Shown piece by piece: positions 19,907 through 29,817 of a DNA stretch of 64,000 bases. This stretch comes from Phyllosticta citribraziliensis (taxonomy: Eukaryota). The position numbers were made by a program, and so were the translations under genes. Location: positions 1 through 64,000 of the forward strand of contig NW_027117343.1 of assembly GCF_038025025.1 (NCBI RefSeq), written 5' to 3'. The notes under the pieces were generated by a model. It ran no database searches and was not told the DNA's origin. It worked only from the letters and a program-made list of their open reading frames with translations. Within the stretch, counting starts at the first letter, position 1, and each line of letters begins with the position of its first letter.

Positions 19907-22390
19907 TTACTTCCTGCCCCAAAGCCGTGAAATTCCGCCAGCCTTCTTCTCTGGCATTTCGCGACTGTTTGTTGTGTGAGGCACAGACGCCGGGTTAGGT
20001 TGAAGTTGGTGGGCTGCGCGTTCCAGCGCTGCGGCGGACCTTGTCACCCTGGTAGTCGGGATACCTGGCTTGGTGACGCGCGATGTCTCAATCCTATCGT
20101 TCCTGTTGTTGGCTGGCACTGGACTCCGGCTCCGGTCTGAGCGCCCAGAGGGCGCTTGCACTGCGTGCCCAGTCATCGCTCCTTTTTGAGCCATCAACAA
20201 CTTTGGGTCTACGAAGTTTTTGGGACTCAAAGAGTTGTTTTGACGATTCATTGGTGTTTGGGCAGTCGGCAGAGACTTCAAAAATTGTTGAGTCTCTGTG
20301 CCGTAGTTCAAGTTGCTTTGAACTGCAGCAGATCCTTGTGGGGCCTTGGAGTTGCCCGGATGAATCTGGAAAAAGGCGCTATCAAAGGTCGCTTGGTCTG
20401 TGTGCGGTCGCGCAGTCTTTTGATCGCTGGTAGAAGCTTGTCCGGTCGAGACGTTCAACTTGTTTGACCGCGAGAACCCTGTGTAAGGATCTCTATCTGC
20501 ACTGTGGCCTATGGGTTGCTTGTTGCTGAGGTTGGTGGTTTGTTTCACAAAGTGCCTCGACGCAGTGGGGCTGCTTTGCATGCTGCCAGGGTTGAGAGAC
20601 TTGCCCGAAAGGTGTCTTGTCGTAGTGGCAGTGCCTCGCACGCCGTCGGATTTGAGAGACTGGTCCGATGGGTGTCTTGGAGGAGAGGGAGAGCCTTGAA
20701 CGCTGCCTGGGTTGAAGGATTGGTCCGCAATGTGCCTCAACATACTAGAAGAAAGCTGTGGGATCTCAGGTTCGGCGTTCGATTGTGCCGCGGGAATGTT
20801 CGGTTTTGGTCCCCCGTAAGCAGGACCGTTCTCATACTGTGATCCCGCAAGCTGAAAGAGACATTCAGCATGGCCAGAAAGCAGGCATTGGTTCGCATTG
20901 AGCCGATGCAGCGGGTCGGGCCGCAGCATGCTTGCCAGGAGGCGTTCCAAAGCACTGTTGCTTTTCTCCATTCGAGCTACCGCTGGGCGTAGTTTCTTTG
21001 CATATGGTATGACCTGTTTGAAGTCCGATCGTGGCGGATCACCCGGAAGCATTCTCAAAAGACACAGCATCGTGATCCCAGCCGACCAGATGTCAACAAG
21101 CGGGCCTTCATAGTTGTGGGATAATACCTCTGGTGCCGTGAAGAGTGGTGTTCCACAGAGAGTGATCATGTTGCTAGAAAAGTGCTTCGCGAATCCAAAA
21201 TCGGCAATGGCAATGCTCAAAGGTGATAGGCTCCTCAGGAGAATATTTTCCGGCTTTAGGTCCCGGTGCGCAAATTGGCGGCTGTGCATATGATCGAGCC
21301 CCATCAAAACTTGACGGAGAATGCTCACAATCCCATTGATGGCGGTTGGAGGAGGCGGATTCGTCTGTAGACTGCCGAGTGGGCAGTACTCCATGGTAAG
21401 TTTCGGCTTTGGGGCTGCCTCGTCGAAGTTGACCACTTGAACGACGTTGGGCTTTCAGGCTGTCAGCTAGGAGGTCAGAAAATTCCGCACATTCAGGCTT
21501 ACGTGCTTGTTCGCCATCATCATTTCGACCTCTTTTCGGAACTGGTCCATTTGGGACTTCGAATTCCTGATCAACTCTTTAACGGCGAATACTTGGCCAT
21601 CTTCCAGGTCAATGAGTCTGCGGACTACTCCGAAGCCCCCTTGTCCCAGTGGTCTGTCAATCGTGTACGTAGCTCGTCCCTTTCCACCGGAAATAGGCCT
21701 GCTTACTGCCGGAGTGATGTCGTCGGAAACCAATGCAAGTGTCGCCATCGATCGCGGTTGGATTTTGCTATTCCTCACGAAGTCTCTCAACTTTTGAATG
21801 TAGCCCGCGTCTCCAGAGTGATGGTGCGGAAAGCTGATTTTGAAACGAAAGCCGGTTTTCCGAGGGACTTGGATTGTGACCTCGTTCCAGTATTTTCGGC
21901 CAGGTTCCAGGGACAGGATCCAAGTGAAATTGCTTCGGATGTCGTTCGCATTTTGCCCGTCGAAACTGACTGCCATCCCCTTATCTGATGACATACGCAA
22001 TATGACCCGAAAATTGTCGTCAATCTTGATGTGGAAGTGCAGACGACTGACGCCTTCGACCACTGACTCTTTCCGCGTGGTCTGAAGTACAACGTCACAC
22101 TTTGTTGAAGAAACGCCAAAACCCCATCCTTCCCTTGCATCCTTGAGATTAGGCAAGTCGTCAAACCTGAGTAAAAGATTGTTTGGAGACTGGTTGAAAT
22201 CATCTTCGTCTACCTCTTCAGGTTGTAGATTCGCGGTTGACTCTCGACTCAGATCCCTAATCACTGCTGCCTCTGTATGTGGCGCTGGCGATTGCCGCAA
22301 ACGGTTGTTGGCTCGCAACTTGGAGGCTTGTATCGCCGCTTCGGAGTTGACCAAGGGGGTCAGGATGGCGAAAACGTTTGAATCAAACAT
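19907..22390 (-). CDS. FHA-like domain + Ser/Thr protein kinase (Chk2/Rad53-like domain order), ~810 aa
   Basis: GQGGFG, AVKEL, HRDLKPEN, DFG, CGTPLFTAPE and DIWSAG all intact; phase-0 GT-AG intron 21452-21502 joins the two ORFs (ANKH|PNVVQVV); N-terminal FHA-like FG...SRLHF; long low-complexity C-tail. Confidence 0.92.
20521..20740 (-). repeat. Coding 60-nt (20-aa) imperfect tandem repeat in the kinase tail
   Basis: RHIADQSFNPGSVQGSPSPP / RHPSDQSLKSDGVRGTATTT / RHLSGKSLNPGSMQSSPTAS / RHFVKQTTNL; the DNA aligns at a 60-nt period. Confidence 0.8.
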
Positions 22391-23255
22391 TTTCAAACTT
22401 TGAATGGCGTCCGATAAAGGCGGGGACGTGGGCAGGGACTTTCAATGAGTTGATGATAGGGCCTTGAAAACTAGCCCGGATTGTAGAAGGATTCGTGGTC
22501 GTTTGCGAGGATCAATCCCCTTAGGCATCTTGACAGAGCTCTATTTAACCCGAATCAAGTCTGATCAGGCTTGGTTCTTGGAACAGCGTCAAACAGGGCT
22601 CGACATGCCGCGTGAATGAACGCAAAAAGTGGATCTTGTCACGGTGAGGTTACTGTGTTGAAGACACATAGCCGCTCGCTCAGGCGGCTCAAGTGGCGCA
22701 GTTCCCTCAGGCGGTTAATGAGTGGTGTTGAGTGTTTCCGGTCACGTTGTAGAAGCGGCGCAGGTCCTCCATTCTCCAGCGCCTCTTCCAAAAAGGGCGT
22801 CATGTGCTAGCAACCATGACGAGTTCGCTGCGAAGCGACAACGCATCCGCTTTTCTGGAGTACGCGAGATTAGACTCCCGTCCCGGCGGCTATGCAATGG
22901 CTTTGCGTTCTCGAGAGAAAGCTGCGAGGAGGCGGCGTACTGTTTTGACGTGTGTGGCAAGTCATCGCTCGATGGCTCCGGAGCCTGGTGGAGAAATTGA
23001 GATGGAAAGGAACGACTGGAAGATGCGGCCAGAATGATGTTGGATGCATCGCAAGGCAAGAGCTGCCACGGTAGGATGACAACGACATGGAGACGGTGGT
23101 TTGTTGATGAAGCCAGGTTCAGGACACCGCGGAAGAGGGTGCGGAGGCAGGGCGACGCTTAGTCAGCGAAACCCCACGCACGTCGTGACGCTCAGAACCA
23201 GAAACGAACACAAGTCCGCGAACGCATTCTTTGGCCAATCAGCTACAAGCGCGCG

Positions 23256-23282
23256 TCTGCAATGGTGACAACTGGTCACACC
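23256..23282. promoter_or_regulatory. Conserved promoter element with GTGAC-N5-GTCAC inverted repeat, downstream of a CCAAT box
   Basis: 27 nt identical in both otherwise diverged copies of the divergent promoter; CCAATCA lies ~20 nt upstream in both. Confidence 0.5.
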
Positions 23283-23465
23283 ACGACGTTTGTGCTTCGC
23301 GGCGCGGCAAGCGCTCGCGCGCTGTGGCGTTACAACCTGAATGTCCCATGATTCCCGCATGTCCGCCTTTCAAAGTCTCGCATCCTGGCGCGACTTCAAT
23401 GCGCGTCGCGCGTCGACTTCCTCCCGCAGCTTTCTCGACTTTCTCTCTGCCTGCTCTCCTTGGTC

Positions 23466-26400
23466 ATGGCGTCCGGGGACTGGCTCAGCGCTGAAGAGTT
23501 GGAGCGCATGGACCGCAACGCTCTCGCCATGGATCTCGGGCTCTTTGACAAGACACTACAAAAAGCACCATACACTGCCCGCTTTATCCCTCCGGAACGC
23601 TTTCACACTCCCACTCCTTCCGATCAAGCCTCGCCTCCATTTGTCAATGCAGAAAGAGAAAATCGGGGTCGCTTGGCTTGGGAGAACAAACACCGGCAGG
23701 CTCTTGAAGATCAAGGTTGTCCTCCATGCTGCCCCAGCAATGTCCAGTTCCCTTACAACAGTCCGCCAGCTGAGTATGAAGGCATCGTCAATTGGTGGAA
23801 GAGCAGAGGCCAACCATACATTCTTGCGTCACAGCTAGAAGATTGGGAGGATTTCTGCGAATGGCGCAAGGATGCTCGACCACAGTTCAAGCACCATTTC
23901 CCCATCTACGTGGACAAACTTCGCGCGAGACGTGAGCACTTTGGTCTGGAAGGTGAGGTTCATTTGAAACGCAAGATTCGGCACCAAAGTCGGTTGCAAA
24001 ATTGGATTGAATTCCAAGATTACCACCATCGAATCCAGGCATATCGCGAGATGGAAAGTGAGGAGGCACAAGCGAAAGAGGATCGCAAAATCTTGTTACA
24101 GTGGATCGAGGAGCAGCGCAAAAGAATGGTCGCTGAAGAGGCTGAAGCGACGAGGGACCAGATGAGAGCAGGACTACTGTAAGACTCAACCATATTCAAG
24201 CCCTTGTGGCCCATGCTGACAGTGTACCTTCCTCCAGACGTCCCCTTCAACACCAATCGGATTCTACCGACCTCTCTTCTGAAGACTCGTTTGATCCTGA
24301 AGCCTTCTCAGAGGCGGTCGGAAGAAGTCTGGCGCGTATTGCTCGTCCTCTAGATCTTGATGCCTTGGACCAACGCTTGGAAAACGCGTCCACCCCTCGC
24401 TGGGCCTCTCCTGGACGCTTTGTTACACCCGAGCACTTGACACCCGAATCGCAACGAACGCGCACTGCAAGTCCTGACAATCCAGAGCGAAGACGTCAGT
24501 GGGGCGTAGCTCTGGAAAACAAGGCACGGAAGACTCTCGAGGATAGTGGATGTCCTCCATGTTGTCCTATTGATATCGAATACCCTTACAGAAGGGCTCC
24601 CAGACGCTATATCGACATTATGAAATGGTGGAAAACTCAGTCTGAGGCAATTTTCAAGGAGCGCAATTGGATCCACCAGGCCCACCTAAAAGACTGGGAA
24701 AAGTTCTGCAGATGGCGCAATCAGCGTCGACCACAGCGATCCACTAGACAGGCTTTCAGTAGCTTTCTGGACGAATTTCGAGAAAGAAGAAGACAGTTTG
24801 GCCTGGAAGGTGAAGTTCACCTCGAAGCGGAGGTCGAAAACCAGACACAACTACAGAATTGGATCGAATATCAAGACTTTCATCATCGAGTGCAAGCACG
24901 TCTTGAGCAAGAACCCTACAAAGACTGGGTCGAACAACACAATGCCGTGCTGCCCTGGATCGAAGAGCAGCGCAAGATCATGGTTGCCCAAGAGGAAGAA
25001 GCGAAATCTGGACCAACGACGGAGCACGCGGCATGGGTTGACTACGCGATCTCACGTTTGGTCCGCGAAGGCAAGTGAGTGTATCCCGGATAGCGGCCTG
25101 CAGTGGATCAAGTTCAATTCTGACACAAATCTTACAGCACGGTCTCTCTCCCTGACGATGTTGAGCGTACAGAAGAGCAAATGAACGAATTGGTAGCAAG
25201 ACTACGGTAAGAGTGCGGCGCTTCAAATCCCTCGTGTCAAATGCTGACCTGGTGTATTGAAGATCTTCTCCCAGTCTTGTACCGGAAGAGAAATCGCATC
25301 CTCCCGACCCAGATGCCTTGACCACAGCCTTGGAAATCGCCTTGGCTCAACCGTATACCAGACCCGCTTCTCCTGGAGCTGCCTCTTCTGGGAGTGGCGA
25401 GACAACTCCCGATCCCAATTCAGAGGGAGCACTAGAAGAGCACTTGCAATACTGCCGAGAGAATATGGTCCACGAAAACGAAGCTCGGAAGCGAATGGAA
25501 GAAATTGGATACCCTCCATGCTGCCCTGCCAACTTTGAATTCCCGTATGACGACAATCTGGGCGAATACGAAGACATAATCAAAGCTTGGAAAGAGGTTG
25601 GCCGAGACTATCGTGTCCTTTGCGTCCAACTTACAAATTGGTCAGAGTCTCGCAGATACCGGAAGCTGTATCGGCCAAAGCACTTGACAAGGGCCGCCTT
25701 TTCCCGCTACCAGGACGAGCTACGATTGAGGCGACGTAAACACAGGCTGCAGGGTGATGTCAGTCTTGCAGCTGATGTAAACAGCCAAACCTTTTTGCAA
25801 AATTGGATCGAATACCAAGACCACCATCTCCGGAGGTTCGAGCAAGCTGAGAGGAACCTCGAACAAGCGAAAAGGGAGTACGGGCCTGGCACGTTTGGAT
25901 ACTTCCGGAACCTTGTTGAGACTCATTGGGTCTTGTCGCAATGGACAGAGGAGCAGCGCAAAATCATGGTTAACGAAGAAGCCGAAACCAATGCTGCAGC
26001 GGAGACACGACCGGCCCCAGTCCCCACAGAACAAACGAAACAATCGCGAAGTCAAAAAAACTCCAGCAGAAAGAAGACAGCGGTGGCGAAATCCATCTCG
26101 CTGGAGCGTAACCCTCCATCCAGGAAACGCCGCCACCAACCGCAACTTGAGGAAGCCGACGCGGACGCAGACGCGCCTCCAAGCAAAATCAGGCGCACAT
26201 CCAAGGCATCGCAGGCACCCAAAGCAAAGACTTCAAAGAACACCGGTGCTCCTGCTCCTCGTCGCAGCACCCGCCAACCACCAGAAAGTTCTCAAACAGC
26301 ACAAAGGGCGACCAAGAACACGACGAGAGAACCGGCCGCGGCAAGCGGAGGTAGCAAAACTACTCGCGAAAGTGCTCGTCAAGTACAGCAAACCGGCAAA

Positions 26401-27090
26401 CCAGCAAGAAGAGGGCGTAGGAAAGCACAGGAAACGGCGGAACCGGCGAAGAAGACGACAGAATTTACTGCCTCGAATGAAACTGCAACCACTGCAGGCC
26501 GTAGAACTCGACAGGCACCGCAGACTACCGAGCCAGGGCAAACAGCGCCCGCGAAGAAGACCAATGGACCCGCCGCCGCCTCCTCCTCAAATGCCCCCAT
26601 AACTGCCATCGCAGCGACAACATCCGGCCGCAGACCACGCACTCGCCTCGCACAACAAGCCCCCGAGCAAGCACCATTGCCAAACCCTCCCAAAACGAAG
26701 ACGGAGAAACCAGGCCTCGCGAACACAACAGCAAGCACGAGAGCAACCCAGTCATCTACCAACCCTCAACACCACGAGCAGGCCCCGGAGCCGGTCGCAG
26801 CAACAACAACGCCTGTACGCCGCGGACGGACGAGCAAGTCACGCTCAGCCGCCACCGGCGCTACCGCCGCAGCTGTTGAAGCAAAATCAGAGCCAGCACC
26901 AGCGGCAGCGGCGGCAGTTGGACAACGGGCGCCTGTTCGAAAGACGCATCCCAAGCCCGAGCCGGTGCAAAATACGACACGAGGCGCGCGATCTACGAAG
27001 CAGGCGCAAGAAGCTGCAGCGGCAGCGCCGCCGCCGCCGACGACGACAAGGCGCAGCGGACGGACGGGTGCGAGGACGGGCAGGAGATGA
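23466..27090 (+). CDS. Uncharacterised ~1148-aa protein: three tandem G(C/Y)PPCCP...QNWIE(F/Y)QD domains plus a basic low-complexity tail (4 exons)
   Basis: Exons 23466-24178, 24238-25074, 25138-25206, 25263-27090. Introns 24179-24237 (GTAAGA..GCTGAC..CAG), 25075-25137 (GTGAGT..CTGAC..CAG) and 25207-25262 (GTAAGA..GCTGAC..AAG) are all phase 2 and join the three track ORFs in frame (3447 nt). Confidence 0.85.
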
Positions 27091-28538
27091 GGAAGAGGCG
27101 AGAGCGATAATGAGGTCGGGGGAGTTGGAGGAGGAGCGGGAGATACAGGGACAAGGCAGCAGTAGACGAGGTCGTTTTTTGTCGGGATGTAGTTGGGTCA
27201 TTTGACTTTCCAATTCCTTTCTTCTCCAAAGACATGCCTTTCTCTTTGTCCATAAGATGTACATGCACTGCGCTTCTCCAGGTCCCATGCTGGGATAAGA
27301 GGATCTGGTCTGTCTGTCGCGTCGGCGCAAACCGCAACAACGCTGCTTTGTGTGCGCAGGGTGGATAGATCCGCCGGGGCGAAAAAGGTCGGGAGCAGTC
27401 AAAGTGCAAGACGGAAGACGCAGAGCATATGGACCAGAGACGACGGTGTGGGGGCGAGGGAAATCAGGGTATATTTACTTCATTGCGTTGCTATACAAGG
27501 TAGGTACATAAATGGTAGCGGTCTGATCTATTCCGCAGCTTTCAATTTCAACAGGAGCTGCTTTATCCACCTCCTCCTCTTCCTCCCCATGGACTCAAAA
27601 TCCGCATACCGACTGAAAGAAGTTTGAAGAAGGGGGGGTCGTGACACTTGAAAGAAGAGATCAAAGATGAAGGAAGGCTAAATCGCTAAGTAAATGTCCA
27701 AAGGAGAGAAGTGTGGTGCAAGAAGAAGGAGAAGAAGCGACAAGTTGCAAAGACGAGAAGGTAGTGGTATCTCTCTAGTAGGTGGTGGTGTCGGTAGTGT
27801 TTGAATGTAAACAGGAGAAGAGAAGGTCGAAGGAAGGAAGGAAGGAAGGAGTCGTCGTGGTCGATTCAATGCAATTAAGAGTTGAGTGAGATGCGAATGG
27901 TAAATTGGATGCCGATGATGCCGACGCTGAATGGAAAATGGAAAAATGCACATGAATGGCTTGCGCTGCCCAGTCTCACGCAAGTTCTGCCATGTCGCTG
28001 TTGTCTGCCGCGGCGGGCTTGGTGTTGACTGGTCTTTGGGCTGGCAGAAAAAAAAGTCTCGTCTGGTACCGCAGTGGTTTCGCGCCATTCTGCGATGAGT
28101 GAGACGTCGACGACGGGGCCTTGGTCGTGAAGTGTCGAATTCTGTCCTGTGGGCCATACCAAGGACCCTGGTTGCTCAGTCTGACTTCGGCGACTGTCGG
28201 ACAATGGTGCTGGTGGCTGATTGGCGGGCTCGCTCTTGATCAACTGAGCCCCGCCTCGGTGTCACGACCGATACAGTACAAAAGTACCTGTCCTCGGGCG
28301 GACTCTAGTCGGTTCAATTGAAAACCTGGACCTTGACAAACGAGGGGTGACGACACTTTTCGCAGCCAACGTGGGTCGCAACCGTCACGGTCTCGGTAGC
28401 TGCATCGACAGTGTGAGCATGCTCCCTCCGATTCACACACAGCGCCGGTCTCTTGGGCCTCGACAGGTCGAAAAGCTCGTGGTCAGACTGCCGCTTCAGG
28501 GCCCGAGGCGTCTCACCGCCGACGCTGTGTCTTGATTG

Positions 28539-29243
28539 TCAAAAGTCTTGCACCCCCGTCTCGCCGGTGATGGCGGGGGTTCCCGGTCCCGAGTGCACCA
28601 ACGCAGGGTCCTCTCCGTCGAAATACTGGTCCTGCGCCGTTCGCTCTTCCTCGGCCACATCGTCCCACTCGTCACTCTCGTCGACCTCCTCGTAGCGAAA
28701 GTCGCGGTCCTCGCCGCGCAAAAAGCGCTGCGTCATGTCGTCCCGCCACCGCGCCAGGCCCTCTTCCTTTGTCATGTTCGCCAGCTCGTCGGCCTCGTCC
28801 TCGAGCACTTGGATCTCGCCGTTGGATCTCCGCCTGACGGCTACGCTGCTGCCATCTGGGTTGTGGAGGGCGGCCAGCTTGGCCTCGGAGCGCAAGAGGT
28901 CGGCTTCGAGCACGCCGCTGTAGCCCTTGGCGCGGCCTTCGGCCTCGCGTTCGGCAGGAGTCTGGAATCGACGGACAAGACGGTCGTAGAGGAGCGGGTC
29001 GGCCAGCTCGAGGCCCGAGTTGAAGTATTCGGGGTGGGTGTCGAGGTAGCGCTTGCGGCGGTTCTTGACGCGGATGCGGTGTTGGCGGGCTTTGGCTTGT
29101 TGGTCGTCTCGCGAGAGGTGGTGTTGTATTTCGGAGGTTTGTGGGGTGGAGAGGCTGGCTGCTGATGCGGCATCGATCTGCATGGGCTCGGGGTCGTGGG
29201 CGTGCATGGTGTCTGGAGCAATGGTGCGGTCGAGAAAAGGCAT
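28539..29243 (-). CDS. CCDC97-like (DUF2052) coiled-coil protein
   Basis: RIRVKNRRKRYL, ADPLLYDRLVRRFQ, MTQRFLRGEDRDFRYEEVD and AQDQYFD motifs; single exon. Confidence 0.85.
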   Translation of the reverse strand: MPFLDRTIAPDTMHAHDPEPMQIDAASAASLSTPQTSEIQHHLSRDDQQAKARQHRIRVKNRRKRYLDTHPEYFNSGLELADPLLYDRLVRRFQTPAEREAEGRAKGYSGVLEADLLRSEAKLAALHNPDGSSVAVRRRSNGEIQVLEDEADELANMTKEEGLARWRDDMTQRFLRGEDRDFRYEEVDESDEWDDVAEEERTAQDQYFDGEDPALVHSGPGTPAITGETGVQDF

Positions 29244-29817
29244 GTCCGTCGCGGTGGGCTGCTCCTACGACTGGACGATGTTGGTTGGGAGTGGAGGAGG
29301 AGTGAAGGACGCCGTGGACGGAAATGGGAGAGTCAGAGTCGTTTGTAGGCGAGGGTCGGGTCGGTGGAGACGGTGGACAGGCCGGTGAGGGACGGGGAGC
29401 GTGTGAGTTGCGATGTGCAGAGCAGGCGACCCGAAGCGGCGACGGTGATGTCAATCAGGCCCACCGACGCCGCCGTCCCGACATCCGACCTGAACCCTGG
29501 GCTGCATCTCAACCCCTGCATGCACCCGACCACCACCCAGGACCCTTCAACACCATGGCCGCCGCTCCACCACGCCTCGACAACCACAACGACCCCTCGC
29601 CCTCCTTTGGCCGCTCGCTGCTCCTGTCGCTCCACTACTGCTGCTCCTTTTTTGTCATGTTCTACCGCATCCTCTGCTGTCGCTTCTAACCCAACCTTCA
29701 CCCTCCCATCTCGCCTTTGATACCCCATCCGTCTTGTTCCGCCCGCCAGCTGTCCTTTTAACCACAACTATAAATATCACCACATCACCACCTCTTTTCG
29801 GACGTCCCCCTCCCCAC

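Follow-up and report, generated by a model that had tools for sequence, protein, structure and literature searches.

A spliced three-repeat gene of Phyllosticta citribraziliensis represents an unnamed fungal family with a predicted helical module and a candidate nucleosome-anchoring tail

Genes assembled by exon shuffling carry one module per exon between introns of equal phase, and the modules of animal extracellular proteins typically belong to the 1-1 phase class. Two kinds of chromatin protein provide further points of comparison. HMGN (RRSARLSA), Dsup (RRSSRLTS), and yeast Dot5 (RRSARIAT) contain short motifs whose arginines bind the nucleosome's acidic patch, as described in the available excerpts of two papers (PMC12487698, PMC13347269), one of which suggests that many more proteins may bind nucleosomes in this mode. 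In CENP-C, according to the accessible part of a third paper (PMC5371998), the basic residues of the CENP-C motif bind the acidic patch, its aromatic residues bind the CENP-A tail, and the motif needs the C-terminal dimerization domain for recruitment. Here we describe a gene at 23466-27090 on the + strand of a 64,000-nt stretch of the Phyllosticta citribraziliensis genome (contig NW_027117343.1, positions 1 to 64,000; hereafter the window), which encodes three tandem repeats of a module followed by a basic tail. We propose that this is a four-exon gene for an 1148-aa protein that combines self-pairing helical modules with a nucleosome-anchoring tail, a reading to which we give a little better than an even chance. 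The gene is expressed and its protein is probably nuclear; the functional part of the proposal, a chromatin-tethered scaffold that would pair with itself, is more tentative, being argued from models and from analogy, and has, in our view, about one chance in three of being right. The locus resembles exon-shuffling genes in its one module per exon, its flanking introns of equal phase, its variable copy number, and its apparently co-duplicated introns, whereas it differs in its 2-2 phase class, in being a compact fungal gene with 56-63-nt introns, and in that the unit junctions of the shorter relatives lie inside exons.

The + strand carries three long open reading frames (ORFs) in three different frames between 23352 and 27090. 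An initial annotation, made from the sequence alone, had proposed that three canonical introns fuse them into one gene for three tandem copies of an unknown domain, with the second copy wholly on an 837-nt exon between phase-2 introns, and had named RNA-seq or long-read complementary DNA across the three junctions as the test. When joined by their coordinates in a script, the four exons (713, 837, 69, and 1828 nt; Table 1) give a coding sequence of 3447 nt from the ATG at 23466 to the stop at 27088-27090, which translates into 1148 aa with a single terminal stop. All three introns are in phase 2, so that exon 2 (837 = 279 x 3) and exon 3 (69 = 23 x 3) are both symmetric 2-2, the donors read GTAAGA or GTGAGT, the acceptors YAG or AAG, and CTGAC branch sites of the CTRAY type lie 13-22 nt from the 3' end. 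A single 5833-nt contig from run X1 covers 23239-24178, 24238-25074, exon 3, and 25262-29228, and its joints (24178/24238, 25074/25138, and 25205-6/25262-3) omit 59, 63, and 56 nt, each bounded by GT..AG. Run X2, which belongs to a separate study and is without cover over 23272-23839, has a contig that carries junctions 2 and 3. Both runs are recorded only as 'RNA?', and we take them to be RNA-derived because their contigs are without the introns of this gene and of the neighboring minus-strand gene, whose spliced joint (21451/21503, CT..AC) is also present in the RNA contigs. The joints coincide with the three proposed introns, and a single spliced mRNA with all three joints is found in X1. 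The one-gene model, its introns, and the lengths and phases around repeat 2 are thus borne out, and we regard the gene structure and the family assignment given below as near certain. The start of the X1 contig suggests a leader of ~227 nt, and its 3' end, which runs to 29228 across a convergent CCDC97-like gene, is uninformative for the 3' end of the mRNA. Within the leader (23341-23465) there are upstream out-of-frame ATGs, all in poor context, the first of which (23341) opens a 165-codon ORF that overlaps the start codon; these may dampen translation. A 27-nt inverted repeat with one arm in intron 2 (25094-25120) and the other in the tail-coding region (26475-26501; 81% complementarity) is probably due to chance.

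The fusion of the three ORFs is not new, as the public annotation already joins them via the identical three introns in P0005 ('uncharacterized protein J3D65DRAFT_353036 [Phyllosticta citribraziliensis]', 1130 aa), which is 100% identical to repeat 2. P0005 is exactly the 1148-aa product minus 18 aa (GCPPCCPSNVQFPYNSPP), which are lost because an in-frame GT..AG stretch of 54 nt in exon 1 is removed as a fourth intron. That stretch encodes the GCPPCCP...PY motif of repeat 1, the motif most conserved across the three repeats and the family, and the X1 contig is continuous through 23716-23769 without a gap; only the unspliced form is seen, in X1 only, and contigs cannot show the absence of a spliced form. 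Because X1 reads through the 54 nt and because of what they encode, the 1148-aa model is better than P0005. It provides a useful annotation correction, since the deposited model drops 18 residues of the most conserved motif in repeat 1.

The three repeats align with one another at 42-47% identity and share 69 invariant columns, among which fall the motifs that the initial annotation had listed as common to them. Pairwise tblastn E values are 1.6e-53 for repeats 1 and 2, 1.6e-27 for repeats 1 and 3, and 2e-30 for repeats 2 and 3, the unit borders given by a hidden Markov model are aa 1-236, 250-516, and 539-797, and a search for a further copy across the 64-kb window found none. Repeat alignment, RNA junctions, and intron phases agree on three tandem copies, one per large exon. 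An exhaustive phmmer search with repeat 1 yielded 290 cluster representatives at E ≤ 1e-3, of which 153 reach E ≤ 1e-10, and by these matches P0005 is the only protein with three matched stretches. Members with names are labeled 'hypothetical' and come from lichen-forming and other Pezizomycotina (Peltula, Pyrenodesmia, Lignoscripta, Seirophora, Lobaria, Psora, Sclerophora, Caloplaca, Lepraria, Chlorociboria, Nemania, and several Phyllosticta species), and most have 250-500 aa and a single module. From the N- to the C-terminus, a typical member has a TPPP-type proline-rich stretch, G-C-P-P-C-[YC]-P, DW..FR, RRRR.GL.GD, NW.EFQ.YH, an insertion that is variable and sometimes a very long coiled coil, WIEQQR, and a basic tail. 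Homologues such as P0012 (Peltula), P0013 (Pyrenodesmia), P0014 (Lignoscripta), P0077 (Chlorociboria), and P0097 (Nemania) match at E 1e-28 and weaker and show ~26-35% identity in the family alignment, with GCPPC[YC]P, the four other motifs, and the basic tail in common. They have one module, often a long coiled-coil insertion in the hairpin, and the full TRSGRISKPPxRW C-terminal motif, whereas in Phyllosticta the proteins contain 1-3 modules and their terminal motif is shortened. Pfam-A gave no family above the gathering threshold for the repeats or the tail and, over 116 family members, no recurring family (six unrelated families, one member each); the best match of the profile among all PDB sequences had an E value of 0.67, and the ESM Atlas returned only Ascomycota 'hypothetical protein' clusters of low recognition value. 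Based on these sequence comparisons, the module defines an unnamed Pezizomycotina family of wide but patchy occurrence, a sizeable one (290 cluster representatives) without a name, a Pfam model, or a structural relative. A metal or redox role of the CPPC cysteines was weighed and dropped: the columns conserved at ≥90% include G, P, and P but none of the cysteines, the first cysteine is replaced by Y in repeat 3, and lichen-fungus members read GRPCYP or GGIPSYP.

AlphaFold2 with repeat 2 and the 116-sequence alignment predicts an all-helical structure with a predicted local distance difference test (pLDDT) score of 83.8, a predicted template modeling score of 0.67, and residues 80-260 above 90, so that the module, as modeled, is an all-helical unit of ~180-250 aa with a confident predicted fold. 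In the PDB, the best Foldseek match had an E value of 0.45, with none ≤0.001, and the best VIA-align match among 48,161 chains (Z 5.8, root-mean-square deviation 4.7, 66 residues aligned) covers only the hairpin at residues 200-267. The structure prediction and Foldseek comparison that the initial annotation had called for give a confident helical model, and the domain stays an unknown one; as judged from the model it is without a recognizable structural relative, which is not proof of a new fold.

The tail that follows the modules (~350 aa) is basic, of low complexity, rich in R, S, T, A, and P, and contains RKRR and RRGRR clusters as well as two candidate arginine motifs, an internal RRSTR and a C-terminal RRSGR, the latter at the position of a conserved C-terminal motif of the family. 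Specifically, an xRSxR string starts within the last 30 aa in 67 of the 153 family proteins, compared with 0.017 per 30 aa elsewhere in them (~26-fold), and RSxR-x4-P-x2-[WFY] is found in 44 of the 153 (48 of 153 by a strict regular expression). Typical terminal forms are TRSGRISKPPxRW and, in long lichen-fungus members, RRS[ST]RISKKPxR[FY], and all six long-tailed Phyllosticta proteins (P0002 and P0005-P0009) end in RRS[GTI]R. The likeness to HMGN, Dsup, and Dot5, as far as the excerpts cited above describe them, is an Arg-Arg-Ser-x-Arg string in a disordered basic region (RRSGR and RRSTR in the window protein, RRS[ST]RISK in distant members), with the HMGN-type arginines present at positions 1, 2, and 5 of both window motifs and with T or Q rather than L/I at position 6. 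The differences are that there is no sequence homology outside the motif and that in this family the motif is C-terminal, on a large helical module. The longer HMGN string RRSARLSAKP is close to the lichen-fungus RRS[ST]RISKKP. With CENP-C/Mif2 the analogy, again within what the accessible text describes, would be that of a self-associating domain joined to a short motif of basic and then aromatic residues, the pairing here being predicted only. The dimerizing domain of CENP-C is a cupin, whereas the module is all-helical; the order here is reversed, domain first and motif last; and CENP-C has two aromatic residues, family members one, and the window protein none. Indeed, the end of the window protein (RRSGRTGARTGRR) contains no aromatic residue and is not a CENP-C motif, and the CENP-C Pfam model gave no match among the 116 family members. 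The spacing of the family motif presumably resembles that of the CENP-C consensus; the review passages describe the motif in words and contain no sequence.

It is possible, if somewhat unlikely, that the tail is instead a generic basic disordered nuclear or nucleolar region (a nuclear localization signal, or RNA or DNA binding) in which RRSxR strings occur by composition and are unrelated to the acidic patch. The low complexity, the abundance of R, S, T, A, and P, and the several basic clusters would suit such a region, as would the lack of a Pfam match and the absence from the window protein of the Pro-aromatic half of the family motif, but the position of the motif at the extreme C-terminus across distant members, its enrichment there relative to the rest of the proteins, and the RRS[ST]RISKKP of the long lichen-fungus members argue for a specific element. 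If the motif is such an element and works as in HMGN, hundreds of 'hypothetical proteins', many of them in lichen fungi, would gain a function open to testing, and a fungal lineage-specific class would join the few HMGN-like binders (HMGN, Dsup, and Dot5).

As to the origin of the array, the global alignment score of introns 1 and 3 is 9, reached by 7 of 2000 shuffles (-1.4±3.6), and with 90-nt flanks the local score is 28, reached by 0 of 1000 (11.1±1.8); intron 2 and the kinase-gene intron have no resemblance to intron 1 or intron 3. In addition, mini-exon 3 (PDDVERTEEQMNELVARLR) can be aligned with the final ~20 codons of exon 1 (AEEAEATRDQM-RAGLL). Because intron 1 and its flanks resemble intron 3 and its flanks, we propose, with moderate strength, that the array arose when a genomic unit of repeat body, short tail, and phase-2 intron was duplicated. 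In a tree of 19 repeat units, type C unites repeat 3 and the second of the P. citricarpa P0156 repeats (100/99). Type B unites repeat 2 and the second P. citriasiana repeat (99/99), together with several units from P. capitalensis (97/91). In type A, repeat 1 falls with the first P. citriasiana repeat (94/93), and the P. citricarpa and P. citrichinaensis first repeats join them more loosely. Nonsynonymous divergence between the repeats (dN) is 0.43-0.59, well below the synonymous divergence (dS), which is saturated (~2.5 or undefined). As types A, B, and C have counterparts in other Phyllosticta species and dS is saturated, the triplication is ancient. The expansion by exon duplication that the initial annotation had envisaged is therefore favored by the intron similarity and by the 1-3 repeats of relatives, though not as a recent event, and the dN/dS comparison that it had suggested points to an old duplication and, with dS saturated, says no more.

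Repeat number was counted at the level of protein models made by others, and as the initial annotation had led us to ask, it varies among relatives from one to three. The spliced window model (1148 aa) reads A-B-linker-C-tail, P. citriasiana P0006 A-B-tail (two repeats), P. citricarpa P0156 A-linker-C-short tail (two repeats), and P. citrichinaensis P0001 A-linker (one repeat), a model that ends (...ARLR) at the position of intron 3, while P. capitalensis has one repeat in P0002 and P0003 and two in P0007, P0008, and P0009. P0002 and P0007, from two P. capitalensis strains, have a near-identical first repeat and tail and are one repeat apart. In P0007 four tandem ASDGENAAE copies join the two modules, and P0002 is without that linker and the second module. 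Exon 2 had been described as free to be skipped or duplicated without a frameshift; it is indeed symmetric, but the shorter relatives are not simple exon-2 skips, as they switch to the downstream sequence of the next unit directly after WIEEQRK-M. Because these junctions lie in exons, we favor unequal recombination over whole-exon loss. Between the repeats, DNA conservation extends furthest in the WIEEQRK-coding stretch (56 nt, 73-77% identity), and copy-number change via unequal recombination at the WIEEQRK-MV-coding stretch is likely from these alignments. P0006 runs from the B body straight into the orthologous tail (51% identical to the window tail). P. citrichinaensis is described, in the accessible part of one paper, as the closest relative of P. 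citribraziliensis (PMC9073689); the linker of its P0001 is 91% identical to that of the window (40 of 44), and the repeat body before it is only 50-53% identical to repeat 1 or repeat 2. In sequence comparison the locus thus looks mosaic and fast-evolving, a statement made with no calibration from neighboring genes. A chimera test of the first repeats of P. citricarpa and P. citrichinaensis found the body about equally similar to types A and B, with only the last ~40 columns (the linker) clearly B-associated, so that a 'Lepore-type' junction there is plausible.

We consider it unlikely that these differences in repeat number are annotation or assembly artefacts and that all orthologues carry the three-repeat gene. 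Pipelines do create false in-frame introns, as P0005 demonstrates, and three models exist for one P. citricarpa/paracitricarpa locus (P0156 with 612 aa, P0157 with 267 aa, and P0018 with 342 aa). However, P0156 runs collinearly as A-linker-C and leaves no space in which a B body could fit, the B body of P0006 continues directly into the tail, and a missed exon would not give the pattern of P0001, in which a nearly identical linker adjoins a far more diverged body. Copy-number change by recombination, in a compact fungal example of the duplication of an intron-carrying module, is the interpretation that we retain.

The pairing of the modules was addressed by complex prediction with ESMFold2, without alignments, on the cores of repeat 1 (aa 45-232) and repeat 2 (aa 65-262) in three runs with three controls. 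The median score was 0.63 (0.75, 0.63, and 0.62), the best control reached 0.00, and the runs had at least 82% contact agreement and a partner pLDDT of at least 78; the score mark is reached by 51 of 78 solved complexes and by 2 of 108 mismatched pairs. The predicted interface is pseudo-symmetric, in that 38 of 46 repeat 1 interface residues align with repeat 2 interface residues, and its contacts are reciprocal: W213, I214, Q217, and R218 of repeat 1 (WIEEQRK) would meet W208, I209, and Q212 of repeat 2 (NWIEYQ), and W180 of repeat 1 would contact I241 and Q244 of repeat 2, with a contribution from the CPPC loop. Repeats 1 and 2 are thus predicted to pair via the two most conserved motifs, LQNWIE[FY]QD-H and W-EEQRK-MV, and an interface through NWIE and WIEEQRK would account for their being conserved best of all.

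The initial annotation had offered a different arrangement, which we find distinctly unlikely, namely that the repeats are three independent, diverged modules, like beads on a string, that recognize different external partners such as kinase paralogs, and that intron retention gives isoforms of one or two repeats. The repeats have indeed diverged, to 40-49% identity, while keeping a common core, and a kinase gene lies divergently upstream, but the conserved motifs sit in the predicted repeat-to-repeat interface and not on a free partner surface, and the adjacent gene is the only link to a kinase, which leaves the kinase-partner idea with nothing else in its favor. Retention of any intron does give an immediate stop (CTG TAA, AAG TGA, and CGG TAA), and some public models of sister species end at such points (P0001 as given above, and P0157 by reading into intron 2). 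This part of the earlier claim is correct for all three introns, but it is nothing special, being an automatic consequence of phase 2 and a GTAA or GTGA donor. Moreover, no intron-retaining or exon-skipping joint is listed in the RNA contigs over 21000-29500, which cannot show rare forms or absence. The view that three independent genes and mRNAs lie side by side and that their fusion is coincidental has virtually no chance of being right, as it has only the three separate ORFs to recommend it and is refuted by contigs from two studies that bridge the junctions at exact GT..AG borders, by the lack of start codons at the repeat heads of ORFs 2 and 3, and by the public model, which is also fused.

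Returning to the self-pairing modules with an anchoring tail, we put forward the following hypothetical sequence of events. Long ago, tandem duplication of a repeat exon together with its downstream phase-2 intron would have built the array, and copy number would still shift between relatives by unequal recombination at the WIEEQRK-MV-coding DNA. LQNWIE[FY]QD-H and W-EEQRK-MV would form a self-complementary surface on a helical hairpin; given such a surface in the module model, single-module relatives would homodimerize, and in the window protein a cis pair would form between repeats 1 and 2, with repeat 3 free to pair in trans. The disordered basic tail, ending in RRSxR, would anchor this assembly to the nucleosome's acidic patch. 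In its boldest form, a long shot that we think improbable, the proposal would be that of an undescribed Pezizomycotina chromatin-tether family with a new self-pairing fold and an HMGN/CENP-C-type arginine anchor, in which Phyllosticta turned a trans homodimer into a cis pseudo-oligomer whose repeat cassettes are swapped or deleted at WIEEQRK. If true, the mosaic and fast evolution would suit genetic conflict, such as genome defense or centromere or meiotic drive.

Several points weigh against this proposal. No solved structure found by Foldseek or VIA-align resembles the module, so that the fold has no anchor. The pairing is the model's own confidence and no measurement, and it was obtained for a pair of paralogous chains; as a chain closely related to a true partner can also pass, the score leaves undecided which repeats pair and whether in cis or in trans. 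The similarity of introns 1 and 3 is modest, involves short introns with partly shared splice and branch signals, and, for the upstream exon flank alone, is reached by 22 of 1000 shuffles. The copy-number differences come from the gene models of others, which are prone to spurious in-frame introns like that of P0005. As for the tail, it is rich in Arg, Ser, and Thr, so that composition can produce short RRSxR strings, the first motif position is T and not R in most family members, the window protein is without the P-x2-aromatic part of the family motif, and no annotation or experiment ties any family member to chromatin. Both leading arginines mattered in Dot5, according to the available excerpt of one paper (PMC12487698 or PMC13347269). 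The analysis adds a correction of the public model, an unnamed family with an unmatched confident predicted fold, and a testable hypothesis of pairing plus nucleosome anchoring.

Table 1. Features of the three-repeat gene and of the duplicated leader in the window
Feature	Position (nt)	Strand	Description
5' leader	23239..23465	+	RNA contig start at 23239, with adaptor letters before it
Exon 1, 713 nt	23466..24178	+	Start codon and repeat 1 (type A, aa 1-236)
54-nt in-frame GT..AG stretch	23716..23769	+	Removed as fourth intron in P0005; encodes 18 aa GCPPCCPSNVQFPYNSPP
Intron 1	24179..24237	+	59 nt, phase 2, GTAAGA..CAG, branch CTGAC at 24216; likely paralogous to intron 3
Exon 2, 837 nt, 2-2	24238..25074	+	Repeat 2 (type B, aa 250-516) and linker start PTTEHAAWVDYAISRLVREG
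Intron 2	25075..25137	+	63 nt, phase 2, GTGAGT..CAG, branch CTGAC at 25120
Exon 3, 69 nt, 2-2	25138..25206	+	Linker mini-exon TVSLPDDVERTEEQMNELVARL; resembles last ~20 codons of exon 1
Intron 3	25207..25262	+	56 nt, phase 2, GTAAGA..AAG, branch CTGAC at 25244
Exon 4, first part	25263..26034	+	Repeat 3 (type C, up to aa 797); motif GYPPCCP, not GCPPCCP
Exon 4, second part	26035..27090	+	~350-aa basic Ala/Thr/Pro/Arg-rich tail and stop; RKRR and RRGRR clusters
Internal RRSTR motif	26260..26274	+	aa 873-877, HMGN-like
C-terminal RRSGR motif	27049..27063	+	aa 1136-1140, 8 residues from end; position of the family's conserved C-terminal motif
Truncated direct duplicate of leader and first 9 codons	19388..19594	+	Versus 23235-23494; blocks 92% and 85% identical

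The gene lies between a divergent upstream protein-kinase gene on the minus strand (19907-23062; Pkinase, E 5e-35) and the convergent CCDC97-like gene downstream. A functional link with the kinase was set aside, as adjacency was all that was found. The truncated duplicate of the leader, 3.85 kb upstream and with the kinase gene between the two leader copies, begins at a CCAATCA box and ends with MAFGDWLSAD and a stop; it is matched by an X1 contig and a loose end, and for this reason we take it to be transcribed. A lost paralogue or a segmental insertion may have left it behind. The first 5000 nt of the window are very AT-rich (GC 0.23-0.36, versus 0.51-0.62 elsewhere), which would fit repeat DNA degraded by repeat-induced point mutation (RIP); that active RIP speeded the divergence of freshly duplicated repeat exons is speculation. 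Within the kinase gene, three tandem 60-nt units on the minus strand (20549-20728, 63-70% identical) encode a 20-aa unit that is repeated three times toward the C-terminus of the kinase protein.

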